From positions 54,142 through 118,141 of the forward strand of contig JAIOYZ010000004.1 of assembly GCA_021740845.1 (NCBI GenBank): DNA of 64,000 nt, given 5' to 3'. A model generated the notes under the pieces. It was not told where the DNA came from and ran no database searches. It was given only the letters and a program-made list of their open reading frames with translations. The position numbers and the translations under genes were made by a program. The first letter of the stretch is position 1, and every line of letters starts with the position of its first letter. This document shows positions 2,824-20,098 of the stretch, in pieces. This DNA is from Bacteroidia bacterium (lineage in GTDB: Bacteria > Bacteroidota > Bacteroidia > UKL13-3).

Positions 2824-4827
2824 ATGAAAAAATTAGCTGTATTAATTTTGATTTTTATCACCTTGGAATCTTGCAAAAAGTTAAGCAATACCTCGGTAGA
2901 AGAACCTACCCCTTCTGATAATGTTACCGACATGAATCAACTGGTGGTGCCAAAAGGGTTTAATTACAAAACCAGTGATGAAGTAGAATTTTCAATTACT
3001 TTATTAAACAACAACGATGAACCTTTAAAACATGTACGCATTGATATTATGAGTGCGGCACCTGAGGATGGTGGCATAATTTATACTACCGGAGCAACCA
3101 ATAACCAAGGGAAATTAGTTCTTAAAAAGGAGTTGCCATTAACGGTTAAAGAAGTTGTTTTGAATACAGATTATATTGGTTTGCCCAACAATGTTTTGTT
3201 GTCTATTCAAGCCCATTCAGCCGCCATTACTTTAGGAGGAAAATTGCCTCAAAAAATCAGAACAATCAATGAGAATAAATATTCTGGTCAAGCTACTTTG
3301 GGTAAAAGCACTTCACAATATTCTTATCGTTTAGGTTCATACAATTCCTCTGGGGTACCAAATTACTTAATTACTCCAAACGATGTGATAAGTTCCACCT
3401 TTTTGGATGATGTAAATGCATCGCTACCAGAAAGACAACCTGTTCCAACTTATAAGCCTCAATATCTTTCTTCATCTGTTGAGAGAAATTTAATTATTAA
3501 AGAACTATGTGATGTTTGGATTACGTTTGTTCATGAGGGAGCTGGTTACCAAAATTCGTTGTTTTATTTTGTTTATAATGTTAATAATAAACCAACATCC
3601 ATTAGTGAAGTAGATTCATTTATTGCGGTTTTTCCAAATGCATCTTATTCTGGAAGTGGAGGAGGAATGACTACTGGAAATAAAGTGAAAATTGGAAGAT
3701 TTGGTGCAGATACCGCAGTTGGTTTTGCTATTGCTGCCAATGGTTGGAATGGAACATCTGTAGGAAATGGTCTTGGATTCTATACCACAATAAAATCTAT
3801 GAATCCTGAAGTTGATGTAAATAAAAAAGAGCATGTAGTTTTATTATATGATAACCCAACCCAACGATTTTTAATTGGATTTGAAGATTTAAATCGCGGC
3901 AATGGTAGCGACGATGATTTTAACGATGTGGTGGTTTATGCAACTGTTAATCCAGTAAAGGCAATTGAAATTATAAATGTATTACCAACTACTCCTTCAG
4001 TGGATGCTGATGAGGATGGAGTAAATGATGCTTACGACGAATATCCTACCGATCCATTGCGTGCATTTAATGTGTATTATCCATCTTCTACTACTATGGC
4101 GAGTGTAGCCTTTGAAGATTTATGGCCAAGTAAAGGTGATTATGATTTAAATGATGTGGTTGTAGATTTTCAGTACCATGCAGTAACAAATGGAAATAAT
4201 GAAATTAAGGATTTGAATGCGAAATTTAAATTACGCGCCGCAGGAGGAGTATTTAAAAATGCTTTTTCAGTTGAGTTTCCATTTAATAGAACCAATGTTA
4301 CAACCAATTCTGGTAGCACAACTTTAGGTTTAGAAGCCGAAGCAACAACTGCAATTTTAAAAGTGTTCTCCAATTCAAAATCTATTATCTCTACATACAA
4401 TACACTTGAGGGAAAAGGTTATGTAGAAACAGACACTTTGTTCACAAGAATGACCCTTACCACACCTGTCTTAGCAACCATAGGTACGTTTAATCCATTT
4501 ATTTATATCGATGAATCTGGAAAGGGTAGAGGATTTGAGGTTCATTTGCCTGGAAAAACACCAACTTCTTTGGTGAATACAGCTATTTTAGGAACCAATT
4601 CGGATGCTACAAATGCTGGAACTGGAGTTTATTATAAAACCAGTGCAGGTTTGCCTTTTGCTATTTCTACACCAGAGAAATTTGATTACCCTTACGAGAA
4701 AATACAAATTATTGCTGCACATAAGAAATTTGCTGCTTGGGTTCAAAGCGGAGGAGCTAGCTTCGACGATTGGTATAAGAATTTAAGTGAATATCGCGAC
4801 AATACTAAAATTTATTCCAAGCCTTAA
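2824..4827 (+). CDS. LruC-domain (DUF4842-like) lipoprotein
   Basis: Lipoprotein signal MKKLAVLILIFITLESC. Repeated acidic motifs GSDDDFNDVVVY and GDYDLNDVVVDF are typical of DUF4114/LruC-domain proteins, as far as I recall the family. Confidence 0.65.
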   Translation: MKKLAVLILIFITLESCKKLSNTSVEEPTPSDNVTDMNQLVVPKGFNYKTSDEVEFSITLLNNNDEPLKHVRIDIMSAAPEDGGIIYTTGATNNQGKLVLKKELPLTVKEVVLNTDYIGLPNNVLLSIQAHSAAITLGGKLPQKIRTINENKYSGQATLGKSTSQYSYRLGSYNSSGVPNYLITPNDVISSTFLDDVNASLPERQPVPTYKPQYLSSSVERNLIIKELCDVWITFVHEGAGYQNSLFYFVYNVNNKPTSISEVDSFIAVFPNASYSGSGGGMTTGNKVKIGRFGADTAVGFAIAANGWNGTSVGNGLGFYTTIKSMNPEVDVNKKEHVVLLYDNPTQRFLIGFEDLNRGNGSDDDFNDVVVYATVNPVKAIEIINVLPTTPSVDADEDGVNDAYDEYPTDPLRAFNVYYPSSTTMASVAFEDLWPSKGDYDLNDVVVDFQYHAVTNGNNEIKDLNAKFKLRAAGGVFKNAFSVEFPFNRTNVTTNSGSTTLGLEAEATTAILKVFSNSKSIISTYNTLEGKGYVETDTLFTRMTLTTPVLATIGTFNPFIYIDESGKGRGFEVHLPGKTPTSLVNTAILGTNSDATNAGTGVYYKTSAGLPFAISTPEKFDYPYEKIQIIAAHKKFAAWVQSGGASFDDWYKNLSEYRDNTKIYSKP

Positions 4828-10101: not shown

Positions 10102-10863
10102 ATGAACAAGAAAATTGCTTTTATTACAGGCGCCAGTTCAGGAATTGGCGAGGCAACTGCCATTTTATTGGCTCAAAACGGATATAATTTGATTTTAAAC
10201 GGCCGCAGAGCAGAACGCATTAAGGTCTTGCAGGATAGGCTAGTTGCTGATTACCAAATAGAAGCACATGCAGCTATTTTTGATGTTCGCAAAAAGGAGG
10301 AAGTAAAAGCTAGCATTGAATCAATTCCAGAAGCTTTTAAAAATATTGATGTTTTAGTAAACAATGCGGGACTTGCAAGTGGCCTTTCTACTCTTGACAA
10401 AGGTTCTTTAGAGGATTGGGAAGACATGATTGATACCAATATTAAAGGTTTGCTCTATGTTTCTCGACAAGTAATACCTGGAATGATAGATAGAAAATCT
10501 GGGCATATTGTTAATATTAGTAGTATTGCAGGTAAAGAAGTTTACGCAAATGGCAATGTATACTGTGCTACCAAGTTTGCTGTGGATGCATTGAATAAAG
10601 GCATGCGTATTGAACTGGCTTCATACCCAATTCGTGTAACTGGAATCTACCCAGGTGCTGTGGAAACGGAATTTTCCATAGTTCGTTTTCATGGCGATGA
10701 AGAAAAGGCAAAAGCCGTTTACCAAGGTTTTGATAACTTATTGGCTAGCGATATTGCAGATGCTATTCATTATGCAATTAGCAGACCCGCGCACGTTAAT
10801 ATCAATGAAATGATAGTGATGCCAACCGCACAACCGGTGCCTGGGATTATACATAGGAAGTAG
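10102..10863 (+). CDS. SDR-family NAD(P)-dependent oxidoreductase (YdfG-like)
   Basis: TGASSGIG cofactor motif, NNAG, catalytic YCATKFAV. Length and order are typical of classical SDRs. Confidence 0.9.
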   Translation: MNKKIAFITGASSGIGEATAILLAQNGYNLILNGRRAERIKVLQDRLVADYQIEAHAAIFDVRKKEEVKASIESIPEAFKNIDVLVNNAGLASGLSTLDKGSLEDWEDMIDTNIKGLLYVSRQVIPGMIDRKSGHIVNISSIAGKEVYANGNVYCATKFAVDALNKGMRIELASYPIRVTGIYPGAVETEFSIVRFHGDEEKAKAVYQGFDNLLASDIADAIHYAISRPAHVNINEMIVMPTAQPVPGIIHRK

Positions 10864-11009
10864 TTACAAGTAAACCCTGACAAGCTTGCAACATTGCGGC
10901 TATCAAGGGAAAGTAAATATAGCCAGGCGCACATTAGTGTAAAATTTTTCAATACGTGTAAGAGCTAAATTTTTCCATACGCACAGCCAGACATTTAGAA
11001 ATTAATTAT

Positions 11010-11017
11010 TACATTTG
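11010..11017 (+). promoter_or_regulatory. Candidate -7 promoter box (TAnnTTTG) for the four-gene island operon
   Basis: tacatttg lies 38 nt upstream of the first ATG (11055). Two 15-nt direct repeats, AAATTTTTC[A/C]ATACG, lie upstream at 10942-10956 and 10967-10981. Confidence 0.3.
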
Positions 11018-11054
11018 ACAATTATAGACAAATCAAATTACAGAAACGAGAGAG

Positions 11055-11300
11055 ATGCAAAATCTGCTACTCAGACAAGTTGCTGCTCCTATTGAAGTTG
11101 ACACTGCATTAATGAGTAAGGCTGAAAGAGGTGAATGGAATTTGAATAGGGACCAAGTTGTAAAGCTTGCCAAATTCTTTAACTCATCAGAGGAAGAGTA
11201 TATTTCTCTATGGCTTTGCGACAAAGTAATTGAAGCGGTTGAGAATGACCCTTTGGCGATTCAAGGAATAAAAAAAGCACTAACAAAAATCAAGAATTAA
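11055..11300 (+). CDS. Short XRE-type helix-turn-helix protein, possibly 5-prime eroded
   Basis: LRQVAAPIEVDTALMSKAERGEWNLNRDQVVKLAKFF resembles helices 2-5 of HTH_3/XRE domains. HTH-like sequence (TNQITETRE) continues upstream of the ATG to an in-frame TAG at 11025-11027. Confidence 0.6.
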   Translation: MQNLLLRQVAAPIEVDTALMSKAERGEWNLNRDQVVKLAKFFNSSEEEYISLWLCDKVIEAVENDPLAIQGIKKALTKIKN

Positions 11301-11305
11301 TTTCG

Positions 11306-13279
11306 ATGCAAATCATTCACAAAATAGACGACTTTTTATTTACCATTTTTCCTGAACTAATAGGGGGGGGTAATGACTTAATTGTCAGTACTTTAGAGGA
11401 TTATTATACCTACGGTCCTTTCAAGCCAAAAGTAAACACGGACAATGGTTGGGTAAAAATAGAAATTGACACCCCGACCATTTTATCGCAGGAAGACGAC
11501 TACAGAAAAACTGTAGCCCTATGTGAAAAAGGAAAATACTCAGAGGCAAAACCAATCCTAAATAAACTTATTGAAAAGAATCCCACAAATTCGGAATATC
11601 ACCGAATTATGGGACAAATACTTTCAGACGAAGGCGACCAAGAACAAGCAATCAATTGCTTAATTGATGCCTTACGTTGGGACTCAAGAAATGGATGGGC
11701 ATTGCTTATGATGGGAAACATTTTTGCTAGGTTCAAAGATGATGTTCCAACTGCTATGAAATATTATGACCAGGCACAAATAGCAAATCCAAATGATAAT
11801 ATCACCATAAACAACATTGGTGCTAACCTTATGCAACAAGGTAAATTGGAAGAAGCTAAAAAATATTTTTATGATGCATTAAAGATTAACGACCAATATG
11901 CAAACACTCATTTTGCATTAGGAATGATTGCTGAAATGGAAGCAGACTTGCAGTCTGCTTTTTTCAGCACCATTCAGGCGATTAAGTTAAGTAAAAGCAA
12001 GGATGTTCTTTATCAAAATTCGGTAAGACAAGCATTTGAAATTGTAAAAAAGTTAATAGCAACCGATACAGGTAAAAAGATTTTCAGAGAATATAGGCAC
12101 AAATTGGAATTCGAAGGTGATAGGAGAATTGATATTGTTCAAGACGAAGAGATACCGACCGCTGCAAAATTTGAGTTCGCTGAAAATTATGAAAGAGATG
12201 TTCATATTGTTAGGTATAAACCAAGCTATCCGGCTGTTGAGCATCTTATTATGCATGAGCTAGTTCATCTTGATTTTATAATCGAAGCAAGAAAGGACGA
12301 TTTAAATCAATTATTCATTTCCAATCAAAGTCACAAGACACAATTTATAAAGGGACTTGAGCCAACAATAAAGAAATTCAATAAAATGGGAATTTCTGAA
12401 AAATCAATTGCTGATTATTGCTCAAACCTATTTGAAGGGATGAATCGGCAAATCTTCAACACTCCAATTGACTTATTCATTGAACAGTTTTTATTTACAG
12501 AATTCCCTGATTTAAGAGCCTATCAGTTTATATCTCTTTACACCTTGTTACAAGAAGGTTTAAAAGCTGTAACTGACAAAAAGATTGTTGAACTATCACC
12601 AAAAGACATCATTTCAAAAAGCAAGGTATATAATCTCGTGAATGCAATTCAATTCAAGGAATTATTCGGACTTGACTTTATAAATGATTTCAATGCAACA
12701 CCAAGTGAATCAAAACATGCAAATGATTTCTATGAAGAATACCTGCAATACAGAGATGACAAAGAACCTGCTGAAGAATATGAATTGGTATTGCATTGGG
12801 CTGAAGACTTAAAACTTGACAAGAACTTCGAACTTGTTAATGAAAAAGAATTTAGAACCAAAAGAACAAACATAGACAATCTTTTATCATCCATTGAAAA
12901 AGACCCATATGACTTGGAATCCAAGGACCCTTACAAGGAATGGGAAATGGAGAAATTTCAAAAATCACAACAGAGCATTGGGACAAACATGGCCGTTGTC
13001 ATGTTCATGGTTGATGCTCTCCAATTTTTTGACGGAATGCCCAATGAAGAAATAAAGAAAATAGCTTTTGAAATAGCAATGCAAGGCACTCAGGGTTATA
13101 GACCTGAGAAAGATGATTACCGAATTAGTTCCATCAAAGGCAAAACGTTTTCAGGTTATCACATTCTTGCGTATTACTATGTTAGTTGGGCTTTGGCAAT
13201 TCCTGAAATGCTTTCTCAATTGCAATTACCATATGATGATGAATACAAACTGGCTTTAACCATGGATAAACCTAATTAG
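11306..13279 (+). CDS. TPR-repeat protein with a central HExxH (HELVH) metallopeptidase-like motif
   Basis: TPR-like repeats span about residues 66-230 (e.g. GKYSEAKPILNKLIEKNP, GKLEEAKKYFYDALKIND). HELVH is at residues 317-321 (nt 12254-12268). The start lies 5 nt after the HTH stop. Confidence 0.7.
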   Translation: MQIIHKIDDFLFTIFPELIGGGNDLIVSTLEDYYTYGPFKPKVNTDNGWVKIEIDTPTILSQEDDYRKTVALCEKGKYSEAKPILNKLIEKNPTNSEYHRIMGQILSDEGDQEQAINCLIDALRWDSRNGWALLMMGNIFARFKDDVPTAMKYYDQAQIANPNDNITINNIGANLMQQGKLEEAKKYFYDALKINDQYANTHFALGMIAEMEADLQSAFFSTIQAIKLSKSKDVLYQNSVRQAFEIVKKLIATDTGKKIFREYRHKLEFEGDRRIDIVQDEEIPTAAKFEFAENYERDVHIVRYKPSYPAVEHLIMHELVHLDFIIEARKDDLNQLFISNQSHKTQFIKGLEPTIKKFNKMGISEKSIADYCSNLFEGMNRQIFNTPIDLFIEQFLFTEFPDLRAYQFISLYTLLQEGLKAVTDKKIVELSPKDIISKSKVYNLVNAIQFKELFGLDFINDFNATPSESKHANDFYEEYLQYRDDKEPAEEYELVLHWAEDLKLDKNFELVNEKEFRTKRTNIDNLLSSIEKDPYDLESKDPYKEWEMEKFQKSQQSIGTNMAVVMFMVDALQFFDGMPNEEIKKIAFEIAMQGTQGYRPEKDDYRISSIKGKTFSGYHILAYYYVSWALAIPEMLSQLQLPYDDEYKLALTMDKPN

Positions 13280-13281
13280 TA

Positions 13282-13611
13282 ATGAAAGAAAACGAAGAAA
13301 TAATAGAAGCACTCTTGAAATTCAGAAATGAAAGAGATTGGGAGCAATTTCACAATCCAAAGGATTTGGCATTAGCAATTAGTATTGAATCTGCTGAACT
13401 TTTGGAATTATTTCTTTGGAAGAAAGCAGATGAAGCAAATACTGAAAAAGTAAAAGAGGAACTTGCCGACATTTTTTCATTTGCATTTTTACTTGCAGAA
13501 AAATATGGTTTTGATGTAAAGGAAATTGTTTTGGACAAAATCAAAACAAATGGAGAAAAATATCCTGTAGATAAAGCAAAAGGTTCAGCAAAAAAGTATG
13601 ATGAACTATAA
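13282..13611 (+). CDS. MazG-like nucleotide pyrophosphohydrolase (DCTPP1/YpjD-type, all-alpha NTP-PPase)
   Basis: FRNERDWEQFHNPKDLALAISIESAELLELFLWK...EELADIFSFAFLLAEKYGFD...NGEKYP is the characteristic small MazG-family pattern with EXXE and E..D acidic clusters. Confidence 0.85.
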   Translation: MKENEEIIEALLKFRNERDWEQFHNPKDLALAISIESAELLELFLWKKADEANTEKVKEELADIFSFAFLLAEKYGFDVKEIVLDKIKTNGEKYPVDKAKGSAKKYDEL

Positions 13612-15808
13612 CCAAGATTTTGAAATAAACAAAATTGCGTTCAATAATAATGGATTGAATTCTATTCAATCACAATATTTTGTAAGCGAAAATTGGCCTG
13701 TCGTATATATTTTAAATAACAATGGTATAAGTCAAGCCTATGTTGGCGAAACCATTGATACTAATTCTCGAATTTTAACCCATTTGCAAACACCAAGCAA
13801 AAGTCATCTCCTAGAAGCTCATTTAATTTCCAGTAAAAAATTCAATAAATCTGTAACATTAGATATTGAATCCAATTTAATAAAATTTTTACATGCTGAT
13901 GGAAAATACAAATTATTGAATGGTAATTTAGGATTGGTAAATCACTCATATTATCAAAGAGATGAGTTTTATTGGGATATGTTTAGAGATATTTGGAATG
14001 GACTTATAAGTAACGGTATTGCCCAACATAGTTTAGAACATATCTCAAATAGCGACCTGTTTAAGTATTCGCCCTATAAAACTTTATCTGCTGATCAAAG
14101 GAAAAATTTAATGCTAATTATTGACGCACTTCTTTCTGAAAATAAGAAATCAGTTTTGGTAGAAGGCGGTGCAGGCACAGGCAAGACTATTCTAGCCATT
14201 TTTCTTTTTAAGTTAATGCTAACCTCTGATGAGGATTTTAATTATAGAGAATTCGGAGAAGACGAAAAAGAATTTATTGATAAAGTAAAACAATTAAAAA
14301 TAAAATTTCCGAATCCTAAAATGGGTTTGGTGATAGCAATGGGTTCTTTTAGAAAAACTATTAAAAAGGTTTTTCGAAACATTAGCGGTCTAAATTCTAA
14401 TTTTGTTATTGGTCCTTCAGATCTTGAATATGAATCATATGATATTCTTTTTGTGGACGAATCACATCGTTTGAGAAAAAGAGTAAATCTTGGCCCATAC
14501 TTCAAAATTTATGACAGGGTTTGTAATGCCCTAAAACTAGACAAACTAAAAACTTCGGAGTTAACATGGACTCAATTAAGGGCAAATAAAGTATTATATT
14601 TTTACGATGCTAAACAATCTATAAAACCTTCTGATGTTGATGCTGTTGATTTTGAAAAAATAAAAAATGCTCCTAACTCAATAAATGTCAAATTGCATTC
14701 ACAGTTCCGAGTAAAGGGTGGCAATGGATTTGTTGATTTTGCAAATAATTTATTGGATAATACTTTTAAGAATAAAGAGTTCAAGTACAACGATACCAAT
14801 TATGACTTGCTACTTTTCGATAATTTTTCTGATTTCGTGAATGAACTTAGAGAAAAGAACAAAAAACATCAGCTTTCTAGATTCATAGCTGGCTATGCAT
14901 GGCCTTGGGTTAGTCAGAATGACCCTAATGCATATGATATTGAAATAGAAAATATTAAACTAAAATGGAACTCAACTTCAATTGATTACATCAATTCTGA
15001 TATTGATGCACAAGAGGTAGGTTGTATTCATACCACTCAAGGTTACGATCTCAATTATGCAGCAATAATTTTTGGACCTGAAATAATATACAATCCAATA
15101 TCAAAAGAAATAGAGATAGTAAAGGAAAATTATAAAGACAGAAATGGAAGTGCAACAATAAGAGATAACGCAATACTGAAAGACTATGTAGTAAATATTT
15201 ACAAAACTATTATGCTCAGAGGCATACTTGGCTGTTACATTTATGTGTGTAACGAAAATTTACGAAATTATTTTAGAAAGCACATTTATTTATTTAATGA
15301 AAGTAAAAAACCAATAATTGATATAGGTGAGTCAAAAGAAATAAAATTGATTCCTTTTGAAAATAGTGTACCTTTATATTCATTGAATGTTGCAGCAGGC
15401 GCTTTAAGATTGAATGAAGAATTTCCAAATGAACAATTTATTTTAGTTCCGGAAGGGGTTAGAATTACAAAAGACCATTTTGCATGTAAAATAATAGGTA
15501 ACTCTATGAATAAAATAGTGCAAGATGGTGAGATTGGATTGTTTAAATGGTACGAAGGAGGCAGTAGAAATGGTTTAATGGTAATTGCAGAATGTATAAA
15601 TCTGCAAGATTCTGATTATAGTTCTTGTTATACTTTTAAGGAATATTATAGTCAGAAAGTTGTTACTGAAGAAGGGTGGCATCATGAAAAAATCATACTT
15701 AAACCAAAATCATATGACCCATCTTATCAAGATATAATAATAGACCCTGAATCAATATATGATAGACCAATTAAGGTAATAGGTATATTTGATAGAGTAT
15801 TGAATTAA
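13598..15808 (+). CDS. Three-domain fusion: GIY-YIG nuclease + DUF2075 (Schlafen group-3-type ATPase/helicase) + C-terminal LexA-like S24 peptidase domain
   Basis: GIY-YIG: VVYIL..AYVGET..R58..H62..E91. P-loop: GGAGTGKT (res 190-197). Walker B: ILFVDESH (283-290). DUF2075-like motifs: YFYDAKQSI, SRFIAGYAWPW, CIHTTQGYDLNYAAIIFG. S24-like: VPLYSLNVAAG...GNSM (Ser636, nt 15503-15505)...TFKEY (Lys681). The start overlaps the MazG gene by 14 nt. Confidence 0.8.
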   Translation: MMNYNQDFEINKIAFNNNGLNSIQSQYFVSENWPVVYILNNNGISQAYVGETIDTNSRILTHLQTPSKSHLLEAHLISSKKFNKSVTLDIESNLIKFLHADGKYKLLNGNLGLVNHSYYQRDEFYWDMFRDIWNGLISNGIAQHSLEHISNSDLFKYSPYKTLSADQRKNLMLIIDALLSENKKSVLVEGGAGTGKTILAIFLFKLMLTSDEDFNYREFGEDEKEFIDKVKQLKIKFPNPKMGLVIAMGSFRKTIKKVFRNISGLNSNFVIGPSDLEYESYDILFVDESHRLRKRVNLGPYFKIYDRVCNALKLDKLKTSELTWTQLRANKVLYFYDAKQSIKPSDVDAVDFEKIKNAPNSINVKLHSQFRVKGGNGFVDFANNLLDNTFKNKEFKYNDTNYDLLLFDNFSDFVNELREKNKKHQLSRFIAGYAWPWVSQNDPNAYDIEIENIKLKWNSTSIDYINSDIDAQEVGCIHTTQGYDLNYAAIIFGPEIIYNPISKEIEIVKENYKDRNGSATIRDNAILKDYVVNIYKTIMLRGILGCYIYVCNENLRNYFRKHIYLFNESKKPIIDIGESKEIKLIPFENSVPLYSLNVAAGALRLNEEFPNEQFILVPEGVRITKDHFACKIIGNSMNKIVQDGEIGLFKWYEGGSRNGLMVIAECINLQDSDYSSCYTFKEYYSQKVVTEEGWHHEKIILKPKSYDPSYQDIIIDPESIYDRPIKVIGIFDRVLN

Positions 15809-16097
15809 TATAAAATTCTGCTTGTGAAGCAGTCATAAACATTACCAAGCCCCCAAAAACCAAAACACAAGCCAAACCTTGCAAAAAAGTTTAACATTTG
15901 TTGTGGATACTACCGACCCTGAACAATATTTAGGTGATTAAATATAGGAGCATGACGCGAAATAAACAGTCCGCTAACAATGCATATAATTAATTTTGGA
16001 ATTTACTGTTAACTGTAAATTTTCTAATTTCGTTTGTTCGGTTCAGGCTGTCTGATTTGCCGTATTAACTCCAAAACAAATCATAAGCCCGAAACCT

Positions 16098-17184
16098 TTA
16101 ATGTTGGGCGTTTTCCATTAGATAAGCTTTTATAAACTCATCTAGATTGCCATCCATTATGCTTTGAACATCGGAGGTTTCAACTTCTGTTCTTAAGTCT
16201 TTCACCAATTTGTAAGGGTGGAAAACATAATTGCGAATTTGGCTTCCCCACTCGATACGTTTTTTGCCTGCTTCTATTGCTGATTTGGCCTCATTTCTTT
16301 TGCGTAATTCCAATTCGTATAATTGAGAGCGCAACATTTGGTAAGCTCTTTCTTTATTACCACTTTGGGAGCGTTCAACCTGACAAACAATTACAATTCC
16401 CGAAGGCTTGTGAGTTAATTGAACTTTGGTTTCTACCTTGTTTACATTTTGTCCTCCAGCACCACCCGAACGAGAGGTTTGAATTTCGATATCTGCATCT
16501 TTAATTTCAATCTCAATGCTATCATCAATTAAAGGATAAACATATACGGATGCAAAGGAAGTATGTCGTCTGGCTTGGCTATCAAATGGAGAAATTCTCA
16601 CCAAACGGTGAACACCTGATTCCCCTTTTAAGAAACCATAGGCAAAGTTTCCTGAAACTTCTATGGTACATGATTTAATTCCTGCTCCATCACCTGCCTG
16701 CTCATCCACAACAGCGGCTTTCATACCGTGTTTATCTGCATACATGATATACATACGCATCAGCATTTCTGCCCAATCTTGGCTTTCAGTTCCACCTGCG
16801 CCAGAGTTTATTTGAACCATGCAATCCATTTGGTCTTCTTCACCACTGAGCATGTTTTTAAACTCTAATTCTTCTAATAAAGTTGTTGTCTCTTTGTATT
16901 GAGCATCAACTTCTTCTTCGGTTCCTTCTCCTGCTTGGAAAAATTCAAATAAAATAGAAAGATCATCAATCGATTGAGTAACCGATTCGTAGGCATCTGT
17001 CCAAACTTTTTTTAATTTGGTGGCCTTTAAATGTTTTTCAGCTTCCTTGGGATTATCCCAGAAATCAGCCATTTGAGCACGAGCTTCTTCTTCTTTGATA
17101 TCTAATAATTTAGTATCAACGTCAAAGATACCTCCTCAGAGCGTCTGCTCTATACTTCAAATCTTTTAATTGGTCTGCAGTCAT
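16098..17184 (-). CDS. prfB: Peptide chain release factor 2, with programmed +1 frameshift
   Basis: Frame 0 encodes [20 protein letters not shown] then TGA (17184-17122). A +1 shift continues as [25 protein letters not shown]... to 16098. SPF and GGQ ([14 protein letters not shown]) motifs are present. Confidence 0.9.
17121..17136 (-). promoter_or_regulatory. prfB: prfB autoregulatory +1 frameshift site (AGGAGG TAT CTT TGA C)
   Basis: The minus strand reads aggagg tat ctt tga c: an internal SD-like element, a slippery CUU, and an in-frame UGA followed by C. This is nearly identical to the E. coli site. Confidence 0.9.
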
Positions 17185-19265: not shown

Positions 19266-19658
19266 ATGAAGCGCTTGATTAATTTTTCATTCCTAAGTTT
19301 ATTCTTGTTGACTAGCCTCAACATTGGAGTAAAGGTGCATTTTTGCGGGGATGGCTTCGATCATTTAGTTTGGTTTGGTTCAGAACAAGATGAAGATTCT
19401 TGCGATTGCTTTGATTTTGGCAAAACAGATTGCTGCTCGGATTTGGTAATTCAGGCTCAAGGAAATCCAGAACGAGTTACTCCAAGGTTGGTTTCAGTTC
19501 CTGATGTAAACAGTTTCAAACTTTTTTATTCTTTAAGTTTGGTTCAAACCGAACCTGTATTTACAAAGAATGCTTTTTGCTTAATTATACAAAATAAAGG
19601 TGATTGGCCGCCTACCTCCCAAAAGGAATTGAGCCAATTGCAAGTATTTAGAATTTGA
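19266..19658 (+). CDS. Small secreted Cys-rich protein (tentatively HYC_CC_PP-like)
   Basis: Signal peptide, then VHFCGD, DCCSD and DWPP motifs in that order. These resemble the H-Y-C / C-C / P-P family found next to metal-associated TonB receptors in Bacteroidota. This call is from memory and not verified. Confidence 0.5.
   Translation: MKRLINFSFLSLFLLTSLNIGVKVHFCGDGFDHLVWFGSEQDEDSCDCFDFGKTDCCSDLVIQAQGNPERVTPRLVSVPDVNSFKLFYSLSLVQTEPVFTKNAFCLIIQNKGDWPPTSQKELSQLQVFRI
19541..19550 (+). repeat. Copy of the over-represented dyad motif (core GGTTCAAACC)
   Basis: tttGGTTCAAACCgaa, inside a CDS and read as LVQTE. Confidence 0.8.
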
Positions 19659-19738
19659 TACCCTTGTTGTTTTGGGTGTTTTAATACACCTCTTCTCTAG
19701 CCATTTTTGGCCATTTATTATTTTTAAAAACAACAATT

Positions 19739-20098
19739 ATGAAATCGATTAAAATTCTTTTAGTTTTATTTATAAGCTTATTTTTAAGCAAGGTTACTTT
19801 TGCACAAAAGGCAACTATACAGACTGATACGTTAACAGTTTATGGAAACTGCACTCAGTGCAAAGACAGGATAGAAGAGGCCTGCGACCAAAAGGGAATC
19901 AAAGAAGCCCTTTGGAATGTGGATACAAAAATTTTGACAGTAGTTTACAATCCTGCTAAAATTAGTTTGGAGCAAATACATGAATTTATTGCAGTATCAG
20001 GGCATGATACAAATTTGAAAAAAGCCGATGATTCTGTTTACGATAAACTACCTGGCTGCTGTTTGTATAGAGAACATCCCAATACACATCACGATTAA
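19739..20098 (+). CDS. Secreted heavy-metal-associated (HMA-like) domain protein
   Basis: Signal peptide. CTQC metal-binding CxxC in a ferredoxin-like HMA context (TVYGNCTQCKDRIEEA...). Cys/His-rich tail PGCCLYREHPNTHHD. Confidence 0.7.
   Translation: MKSIKILLVLFISLFLSKVTFAQKATIQTDTLTVYGNCTQCKDRIEEACDQKGIKEALWNVDTKILTVVYNPAKISLEQIHEFIAVSGHDTNLKKADDSVYDKLPGCCLYREHPNTHHD

Follow-up and report, generated by a model that had tools for sequence, protein, structure and literature searches.

A candidate modular immune system of Bacteroidota built around a MazG-like enzyme and a GIY-YIG/DUF2075/S24 effector

A 64,000-nucleotide stretch of DNA from a Bacteroidia bacterium (contig JAIOYZ010000004.1 of assembly GCA_021740845.1; the full stretch is called the window) was analysed around a block of four co-directional genes at positions 10864-16097. 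In order, these genes encode an XRE-family helix-turn-helix (HTH) protein, a TPR protein with an HExxH motif, a MazG-like pyrophosphohydrolase, and an effector that joins a GIY-YIG nuclease, a DUF2075 helicase and an S24 autoprotease domain in a single polypeptide. The block is a real insertion, and we favour with moderate confidence the reading that it is a horizontally transferred, modular immune system that targets nucleic acids and acts against phages or other mobile DNA. Judging from sequence comparisons, its evolutionary unit is a core pair, MazG plus DUF2075 effector, joined by a facultative HTH/TPR-HExxH front end that also drives McrBC-like effectors.

The block comprises the 5,234 nt between the stop codons of an SDR oxidoreductase gene (10102-10863) on its left and of prfB on its right, with typA following prfB. 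Its plus strand carries open reading frames (ORFs) at 11055-11300, 11306-13279, 13282-13611 and 13598-15808, which are spaced by 5, 2 and -14 nt and bounded by 191 nt (left) and 289 nt (right) of non-coding DNA. All of these values, and the position of the block between the SDR gene and prfB/typA, agree exactly with the original prediction, which was made from the letters of the window and had proposed a candidate defence or stress-triggered nuclease operon. A metagenome scan with the SDR protein yielded four syntenic contigs, on which a methyltransferase-like gene, rnz, a small ORF, the SDR gene, prfB and typA were found; TypA of one of them (L027) was 97% identical to that of the window. In all four contigs (L027, L029, L030 and L039) the SDR and prfB stop codons lay 11-14 nt apart. 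These empty sites show that the block was inserted between SDR and prfB, and they provide the synteny comparison that the original prediction had named as a check. No tRNA was found in the 64-kb window, the insert contained neither an integrase nor a transposase gene, and no convincing direct repeat flanked the block, as had been noted from the sequence before. Convincing flanking inverted repeats were likewise absent, and neither a target-site duplication nor terminal inverted repeats were present at the insert ends.

Comparison with other copies of the module supported horizontal acquisition, which had been proposed from the letters of the window. The close-locus set consisted of 21 species-representative genomes and further contigs, all from Bacteroidota. 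Effector copies 84-93% identical to that of the window were found in metagenome-assembled genomes (MAGs) labelled Daejeonella, Chitinophaga, Cytophagales, Flavobacteriales, Saprospiraceae and others, and thus across nominal orders. The 21 genome loci had mutually unrelated flanks, the flanks of the window were common to none of 23 Bacteroidota loci with MazG and effector, and only positions 10960-15890 were shared with other fetched loci (loci are designated by L numbers). Synonymous divergence (dS) between the window and other module copies was 0.3-0.6 for MazG and effector, against 1.0 to saturation for host housekeeping genes when these were compared with the closest relative of the same synteny, in which the block is missing. 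One Sphingobacteriales MAG (JADKIQ01) held two MazG + DUF2075-S24 pairs on different contigs (L009 and L012), the MazG proteins of which were 84% and 77% identical to that of the window.

The view that the four genes form a fixed operon was not borne out. Of 22 informative close loci, 4 held HTH, TPR, MazG and effector genes, 2 held the TPR gene without HTH, and 14 held MazG and effector alone; a further 2 (L018 and L020) had, upstream of MazG, no more of the TPR gene than 56 codons of its 3' end. It was the linkage of MazG to the DUF2075 gene that proved general when neighbourhood conservation was checked, as the original prediction had advised. The MazG gene overlapped the effector start in 23 of 23 Bacteroidota loci with upstream DNA. 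Of the 39 plasmid records listed in both searches, 31 had the two genes side by side; these were mostly megaplasmids of the Bacillus cereus group, on which the effector and MazG homologues were 33% and 49% identical, respectively, to those of the window. The same neighbourhood, in either gene order, was seen for 11 of 15 distant relatives located on IMG/VR contigs, at 22-39% identity. In Halomonas the order of MazG and DUF2075 was reversed and the S24 part was present.

A pair that is small, mobile and patchy, resides on megaplasmids, and is always adjacent in close loci with a 14-nt overlap between its genes could also be selfish, an addiction (toxin-antitoxin-like) module without a dedicated role in immunity, in which the nuclease-helicase would be a toxin, held harmless by MazG and/or the S24 tail, that stabilises its carrier DNA. 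PemK toxin and PIN genes near some loci are consistent with this explanation, as are frameshifted or fragmented copies in L016, L019 and a Marivirga plasmid. MazG, however, keeps its pyrophosphatase catalytic motifs, and its 49% identity between phyla would be uncommon in an antitoxin; in addition, gene order is not fixed and the same MazG pairs with McrBC-like modules (see below). We therefore consider an addiction module decidedly unlikely. It is in any case only partly a rival to the immune reading, as toxin-antitoxin behaviour is compatible with abortive-infection defence.

The variable presence of the front end raises the question of whether the block combines two or more unrelated units that are merely adjacent and have no joint function. 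The base composition of the block is consistent with this. Its G+C content was 32.4%, compared with 35.0% for the whole window, and was the second lowest among 588 windows of the same size; the AT-richness reported earlier is thus real, but the hand count behind it (about 31% versus about 38%) had overstated the contrast, the genes immediately flanking the block being at 38-39%. The dip was carried solely by MazG (30.3%) and the DUF2075 gene (29.7%), while HTH (37%) and TPR (34.5%) were at background. The 14 of 22 loci with MazG and DUF2075 alone point the same way, as does a mosaic history: in the same locus pairs, dS of the TPR gene was 1.0-1.9 and that of MazG and effector 0.3-0.6.

Joint descent of front end and core is nevertheless indicated by gene linkage. 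In the genomic contexts of TPR-HExxH homologues, MazG lay downstream in every one sampled, and a broken-up TPR-HExxH gene of 37-43% identity stood ahead of MazG and DUF2075 fragments on the 25-kb Marivirga plasmid p1 (L118, NZ_CP129969.1). To judge from so diverged a TPR-HExxH gene in this company, the three-way link is old. The TPR remnants upstream of MazG in L018 and L020, the 5- and 2-nt gaps and 14-nt overlap, which fit co-transcription, and the conserved DNA arms around the effector gene likewise argue against a chance assembly, which we regard as very improbable. The narrower idea that HTH and TPR are unrelated neighbours of a two-gene system was rejected on the linkage of TPR to MazG in all sampled contexts, that of the Marivirga plasmid included.

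What follows the TPR-HExxH and MazG genes was of two kinds, either a DUF2075-S24 effector (P0233) or an AAA_5 plus McrC-like pair. The latter consisted of a 527-628-aa AAA_5 McrB-like protein (PADLOC PDC-M26A, ~4e-40) and a DUF2357/PDDEXK_7 McrC-like protein, and it was found in L107-L113, L119-L125, several MAG lineages and the isolate Pedobacter puniceum, in the last at about 920-938 kb of WKJI01000001.1 (assembly GCA_009674685.1). DNA homology between the window and L108/L107 began at 10960, broke off at 13609/13612, in the last codons of MazG, and resumed at 15830-15890, past the effector stop codon; between these homology arms, the McrBC-like pair replaced GIY-YIG/DUF2075/S24. Because homology stops at the end of MazG and resumes after the effector, the HTH-TPR/HExxH-MazG genes and a 3' arm of ~60 nt can be viewed as a chassis into whose slot different effectors fit. 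On the right, the recombination arm of this slot would lie within a conserved 3' segment of the module (15809-15890, plus strand), in which homology to L004, L016, L017, L018, L020 and L022 also reached ~15890. McrBC-type pairs are classic type IV restriction systems. The McrBC type (PADLOC candidate PDC-M26) resembles the module of the window in that, in related loci, it follows the same HTH-TPR/HExxH-MazG chassis and fills the slot that the effector has in the window; it differs in that the McrB/McrC pair is absent from the window, is an alternative effector elsewhere only, and consists of proteins unrelated to GIY-YIG/DUF2075/S24.

The effector gene (13598-15808, plus strand) encodes 736 aa in three domains: GIY-YIG, DUF2075/SF1B helicase and LexA/UmuD-like S24. 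The helicase domain (aa 183-551, nt 14144-15250; Walker A at 191-197, DE at 287-288) matched PF09848 at 2e-53, and both Walker A (G-x-A-G-T-G-K) and Walker B (D-E) did not vary among 58 sequences, the most distant of which were at 31% identity. An AlphaFold2 (AF2) model of the effector from a 58-sequence alignment had a predicted local distance difference test score (pLDDT) of 85 and a predicted template modelling score (pTM) of 0.70; its top PDB matches in Foldseek were the SF1B helicases Upf1, RecD2, RecD, Dna2, SLFN11 and nsp13. The GIY-YIG nuclease domain (aa ~30-115, nt 13685-13942; Y37, Y48, R58, E91 and N108) scored 15.1 bits (15-18) against PF01541 in the window copy, below the cut-off of 22.6. 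At the family level, PF01541 matched 19 of 19 divergent N-terminal domains (best 1.2e-9), and Y37, Y48, G50, E51, R58, H62, E91 and N108 were invariant in 58 sequences of 31-93% identity. A search of the PDB with the N-terminal profile placed UvrC, I-TevI and T4 EndoII on top, at a weak E of ~0.03.

Similar results were obtained for the S24 autoprotease domain (aa 592-736, nt 15371-15805). The window copy was a borderline match to Peptidase_S24 PF00717 (23.6 bits, cut-off 23.3), and the family profile matched LexA (1e-5) and UmuD' (1e-3). Three elements of the domain were in register with LexA: its A-A-G corresponds to the V-A-A-G site (Ala84-Gly85), its G-x-S-M to Ser119 and its T-V-K to Lys156. 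The Ser-Lys dyad is Ser636 (nt 15503) and Lys681 (nt 15638), and the predicted cleavage site is Ala600-Gly601 (nt 15395-15400). Among 14 members at 36-48% identity, the serine of G-x-S-M was invariant, an A-A-G or A-C-G site was present in 13 and the lysine in 13; P0253, the sole member without an A-G site, was also without the lysine. The domain assignments of the original prediction thus fared unequally in the window copy, where DUF2075, MazG and TPR were strong matches, S24 was borderline and GIY-YIG and HTH fell below threshold; homologue profiles and conserved catalytic residues confirmed GIY-YIG, S24 and HTH at the level of the family. The nuclease, helicase, S24 and MazG catalytic motifs were all conserved, in support of the earlier view of the block as an effector module.

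The effector gene adds to the mosaic character of the module: its S24-coding part (15300-15808) showed nonsynonymous divergence (dN) of 0.155 and dS of ~1.0 versus L003, L007 and L023, the rest of the gene being at dN ~0.03 and dS ~0.4; there was no such excess divergence versus L001. This pattern suggests domain-level recombination within the effector gene.

The effector family is large. At 90% clustering, >6,900 matches were obtained, with hundreds of full-length sequences at at least 70% identity. At 50% clustering there were 2,472 clusters, mostly of 560-590 aa, which covered query aa ~8-563 (GIY-YIG plus DUF2075) without the S24 region; the S24-bearing form is a sub-clade of the family.

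The partner enzyme (13282-13611, plus strand; 109 aa) is a MazG-like all-alpha nucleoside triphosphate pyrophosphohydrolase of the DCTPP1/RS21-C6 type with metal-binding motifs E36-x-x-E39 and E60-x-x-D63. It matched PF12643 at 9e-20 (71.2 bits, cut-off 27), phrog_3301 pyrophosphatase at 3e-15, and PDB structures of DCTPP1/RS21-C6 at 6e-18, with ~45% identity to mouse and human DCTPP1 over the whole 109 aa; DCTPP1 was its closest solved relative. DCTPP1 prefers 5-modified dCTP. The window protein shares with DCTPP1/RS21-C6 the profile match and the ExxE...ExxD metal motifs, and differs in being a minimal 109-aa protein that is an obligate neighbour of nucleases on mobile DNA. Among defence domains, MazG is listed as a prediction that still awaits validation (PMC13092281).

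Upstream of MazG, the TPR-HExxH gene (11306-13279, plus strand) encodes 657 aa, with TPR repeats at aa ~60-235 (nt 11483-12010; TPR_2 at 1e-12), a C-terminal domain at aa 236-657 and the HExxH motif at aa 317-321 (nt 12254-12268). The stretch around the motif, VEHLIMHELVHL, was the best-conserved segment in the 37%-identical Marivirga homologue. The C-terminal HExxH domain of ~420 residues had no match in Pfam, PADLOC (including CapP), PDB or PHROGs, and the protein matched neither M78/COG2856 (ImmA/IrrE) nor any other peptidase family. Its AF2 model was too poor for a fold test (pLDDT 50.7, pTM 0.29), because the alignment was shallow (at least 84% identity).

The HTH gene heads the four-gene form and is preceded by a promoter/leader region (10960-11054, plus strand), in which DNA homology to L004, L007, L017 and L114 begins at 10960. 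Bacteroidota promoters have the consensus TAnnTTTG, and by its likeness to this consensus a -7 box of the Bacteroidota type, TACATTTG at 11010-11017, is a putative promoter element. Alignment against L007, L017, L022 and L004 revealed a 32-nt deletion in the window, with its junction near 11034/11035, between imperfect direct repeats of ~13 nt, AAAATACAGAAACG and AAAATTAGAGAAACG. The deletion took away the start codon and helix 1 that are present in homologues of the HTH protein, and a replacement ATG arose through an AAG to ATG change. The palindrome TTGACAAGTCAA of the homologues, which is likely the operator, is missing in the window owing to two substitutions directly upstream of the deletion. 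As a result, the window's HTH gene (11055-11300, plus strand) is 5'-truncated and encodes 81 aa, without helix 1, compared with 94 or 105 aa in homologues; loci of the L007/L017 type keep an intact form of 94 aa. It scored 14.5 bits against HTH_31, below the cut-off of 27; a full-length homologue matched HTH_31 (8e-9), HTH_3 (7e-7), PADLOC capH (2e-5) and PADLOC Control_protein (7e-7). The 90% cluster of the HTH protein has 276 members, and most of the 15 listed are 94 or 105 aa long. The 81-aa form was also recorded on two contigs from Logan read-run assemblies, which makes an assembly artefact unlikely. With its repressor truncated but the promoter region retained, the operon is probably not repressed normally in the window, and its expression may be altered or even constitutive. 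The earlier description of the block as self-regulated is therefore doubtful for this copy.

An XRE HTH gene next to an HExxH gene recalls known control circuits. In CapH/CapP, ImmR/ImmA and DdrO/IrrE, an XRE repressor and a signal-activated HExxH metallopeptidase control immune or mobile-element operons (10.1101/2022.04.27.489752, PMC13228613). In a similar arrangement, the block has a small XRE HTH gene, although a truncated one, immediately upstream of a gene for an HExxH protein, the two heading an effector operon. Unlike those systems, the HExxH protein of the window has an N-terminal TPR array and no M78/COG2856 match, and the HTH gene, in contrast to CapH, is absent from many module loci and truncated in the window.

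The effector itself was compared with known immune proteins. A PADLOC search (2023 models) returned partial matches only: Nhi at 4e-11, with effector aa 274-422 aligned to profile positions 259-375 of 470 (~117 positions in two matched stretches), AbiO at 2e-9, likewise partial and on the helicase core, and weak PDC-S14 matches on the N-terminal region. There was no full-length match to the Nhi or AbiO models. NCBIfam gave nothing specific for the block proteins, and in the literature we found no description of a MazG-DUF2075 system, of S24 fused to an immune effector, or of the present TPR-HExxH family; the combination of genes thus still matches no named system, as the original prediction had supposed.

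The nearest characterised architecture belongs to a group of single-protein nuclease-helicases with experimentally validated anti-phage activity, namely Nhi (S. epidermidis SERP2475) and its Nhi-like counterparts. As in Nhi, a nuclease at the N-terminus is followed by a DUF2075 SF1B helicase in one polypeptide, and the fold neighbours reported for Nhi (Upf1, Dna2 and Dda-type) match those of the window effector. The nuclease is PD-(D/E)XK in Nhi and GIY-YIG in the window effector. In addition, Nhi is a stand-alone gene, whereas the window family is tied to a MazG-like partner, and the clade of the window adds a LexA-type S24 domain and often the TPR-HExxH/HTH front end. In our best reading the module is therefore not categorically new but a probable immunity module of the Nhi-like nuclease-helicase kind, to which new partners, some obligate and some facultative, have been added.

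The individual effector domains have further relatives. The S24 domain has the Ser-Lys dyad of LexA, UmuD and lambda cI (MEROPS S24) and, upstream of it, an A-[A/C]-G site that occurs in an A-G variant and a C-G variant, as in LexA and UmuD; it differs from them in being the C-terminal tail of a 600-residue nuclease-helicase, with neither the DNA-binding domain of a repressor nor a role as polymerase accessory. No description of such an S24-nuclease-helicase fusion was found in the literature. GIY-YIG is already established as a defence nuclease in CMoRE, a type IV modification-dependent endonuclease that acts against phages with modified-cytosine DNA (PMC12923530); CMoRE, however, is a small single protein with a modification-reader domain and without helicase, MazG or S24. 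The helicase likens the effector to SLFN11 and other group-3 Schlafens, both by the PF09848 match and by the rank of SLFN11 among the structural matches, but in place of the Schlafen-core RNase domain it has GIY-YIG and S24. SLFN11 acts at stressed replication forks and on single-stranded DNA (ssDNA), and DUF2075 has been reported adjoining modification-dependent enzymes (PMC6765204). A case of such proximity was seen on Paenibacillus amylolyticus plasmid pY5S7-1 (L116), where the GIY-YIG-DUF2075 gene is immediately preceded by a gene for an MrcB_N plus HNH protein (3522-4802; 4e-59 to PF12102), built like a modification-dependent endonuclease. On this plasmid a MazG homologue was located 10 kb from the GIY-YIG-DUF2075 gene.

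Taking these comparisons together, we infer the following scheme for an immune function. The core would be a translationally coupled pair, a MazG enzyme and a single-chain GIY-YIG/SF1B helicase effector. MazG would hydrolyse non-canonical, probably base-modified, deoxynucleoside triphosphates (dNTPs), and thereby starve phages that build modified DNA and/or bar such nucleotides from host DNA, where they would attract the nuclease. Base-modified DNA or nucleotides are a plausible theme because of the MrcB_N-HNH neighbour, the occurrence of DUF2075 by modification-dependent enzymes and the DCTPP1-type hub. Because the GIY-YIG/DUF2075 effector interchanges with McrBC-like modules, both effectors may do the same job of destroying foreign DNA. 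RecA-ssDNA filaments, formed in phage replication or on DNA damage, may trigger self-cleavage of the effector at Ala600-Gly601, which would free a dimerising or auto-inhibitory tail and switch the nuclease-helicase to another state, whether activating or inactivating it. The XRE repressor and the TPR-HExxH protein, a putative metallopeptidase, would form an optional control layer like CapH/CapP, ImmR/ImmA or DdrO/IrrE, in which sensor-activated cleavage of the repressor would derepress the operon.

All of these parts may be joined in one reading, which we put forward tentatively and hold to be possible but doubtful as a whole. The module would then represent a new modular immune family, in which an obligate DCTPP1-like dNTP-sanitising hub serves interchangeable nucleases (the Nhi-like GIY-YIG-helicase or the McrBC-like pair), destroying phage-made modified dNTPs and/or shielding the host chromosome. 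The effector itself would read RecA-ssDNA via LexA-type autoproteolysis, and the TPR-HExxH protease of a new family would, with the XRE repressor, add a second, transcriptional trigger.

Several findings weigh against the immune reading or against parts of it. Most members of the effector family are without S24, so that any link to RecA would be an add-on specific to one clade; the HExxH domain is tied to no peptidase family, with an AF2 model at pLDDT 51 and no Pfam or PDB match; and the HTH protein of the window is truncated. Each domain also has a DNA-repair analogue: UvrC for GIY-YIG, UvrD/RecD for the helicase, UmuD for S24, and dNTP-pool sanitation for MazG. Purifying selection acted on all genes of the block, with dN/dS of 0.04-0.13 for the four genes (one HTH comparison gave 0.32; TPR 0.05-0.07, MazG 0.04-0.09) and 0.02-0.06 for the housekeeping flanks, and such low values are like those of housekeeping genes and unlike the diversifying selection of some immune sensors. 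Within 3.2 kb of 26 loci the neighbours were mostly housekeeping genes; a minority were defence or mobile-element genes (Bro-N three times, PIN and Fic twice each, DpdF-like, DRT RT_UG29, PsyrT and several PDC candidates), which count in favour of the immune reading. Enrichment in defence islands is thus modest, if suggestive, and the module behaves as a small stand-alone islet. No close copy was present on phage records or IMG/VR contigs, the phage GenBank set giving four distant matches, and no close or full-length copy was present on plasmids, the best being ~34% identical over 72% of the query. The possibility that the exact module is phage-borne was dropped, since scans of IMG/VR for close relatives of the effector and the TPR protein were null and phage GenBank held only distant ones.

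Much of this evidence would also fit a mobile cassette for SOS-type DNA-damage repair or tolerance, akin to the umuDC/mucAB genes borne by plasmids and integrative and conjugative elements. MazG would then clear damaged dNTPs from the pool, the GIY-YIG-helicase would act on lesions or on forks that have stalled, S24 would provide UmuD-like activation by RecA, and HTH/HExxH would act like DdrO/IrrE. The register of the S24 site, serine and lysine with LexA and UmuD' agrees with such roles, as do the UvrC GIY-YIG domain among the best PDB matches of the N-terminal profile, the RecD, RecD2 and Dna2 folds near the helicase, the house-cleaning function of DCTPP1, the use of an XRE plus HExxH pair as a DNA-damage switch in IrrE/DdrO, strong purifying selection and the many housekeeping neighbours. 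A repair cassette does not, however, account readily for the McrBC-like restriction modules that the same chassis holds in the identical slot, and the nearest characterised architecture, Nhi, is anti-phage. Furthermore, most GIY-YIG-DUF2075 relatives keep MazG without S24, the distribution is patchy and recently transferred, with the host's close relatives lacking the block, and the MrcB_N-HNH neighbours point to modified foreign DNA. We thus regard a repair cassette as unlikely, if worth keeping in mind, and retain modular immunity as the favoured reading.

If this reading is correct, a common MazG-like plus DUF2075 pair that crosses phyla would gain a function in place of the present database labels, "nucleotide pyrophosphohydrolase" and "DUF2075 domain-containing protein". 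The effector would carry the first LexA/UmuD-type self-cleaving domain that we have found on an immune effector, and hence a direct wire from RecA filament to nuclease. The module would also recall two human proteins, SLFN11 (DUF2075-type, at stressed forks) in its effector and DCTPP1 in its MazG. A compact chassis with an exchangeable effector slot between recombination arms would inform how defence systems diversify and how further effectors may be mined, and native genetics is feasible, as the cultured isolate Pedobacter puniceum has the sister McrBC-type version.

Some copies of the module were disrupted. In L016 and L019 the effector was split by frameshifts, and in L016 the TPR gene was as well; L016 is a long-read 'tig' assembly, in which sequencing error is possible. 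Genuine decay seems the better explanation for the copy on the Marivirga plasmid, in which TPR-HExxH is interrupted by in-frame stops and the DUF2075 genes are in fragments. Additional genes accompanied the module in other loci. An Exo_endo_phos (EEP) nuclease/phosphatase gene was found between TPR-HExxH and MazG in L004 (8971-9681) and just upstream of HTH in L022 (5864-6823); it may belong to the module as another accessory. Upstream of HTH in L108 and L119, which have the McrBC-type version of the chassis, an ssb gene recurred together with an unannotated gene for 386-436 aa without a Pfam or PADLOC match.

Outside the shared segment 10960-15890, the left end of the insert (10864-10959, 96 nt) had no homologue in the fetched loci and the right end (15891-16097, 207 nt) no match in other loci; both are absent from the four empty sites. 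The conserved 3' segment contains a short CTGCTT-GTG-AAGCAG hairpin at 15818-15832. An RNA component of the block, such as a retron-like non-coding RNA, was rejected: an Rfam scan gave no significant match, and the 3' segment folded no better than shuffled sequences. A scan for promoter and terminator consensus sequences gave counts no higher than in shuffled sequence (32 versus 30.5 and 5 versus 3.7) and was not used. Exact-sequence look-ups of the effector and prfB products returned no match, the prfB product being frameshifted and the exact effector sequence absent from the collection.

The right-hand neighbour, prfB (16098-17184, minus strand), has the canonical site of programmed +1 frameshifting, AGGAGG...CTT TGA C, and its true start is the ATG at 17184, where a short frame begins; because the programmed frameshift splits the gene, the ORF listing shows only the 324-aa downstream frame. 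Downstream of typA, at 19266-20098, there are two small ORFs, one of 130 aa that is Cys-rich and one of 119 aa with a CxxC motif, the latter of which looks like a heavy-metal-associated domain protein.

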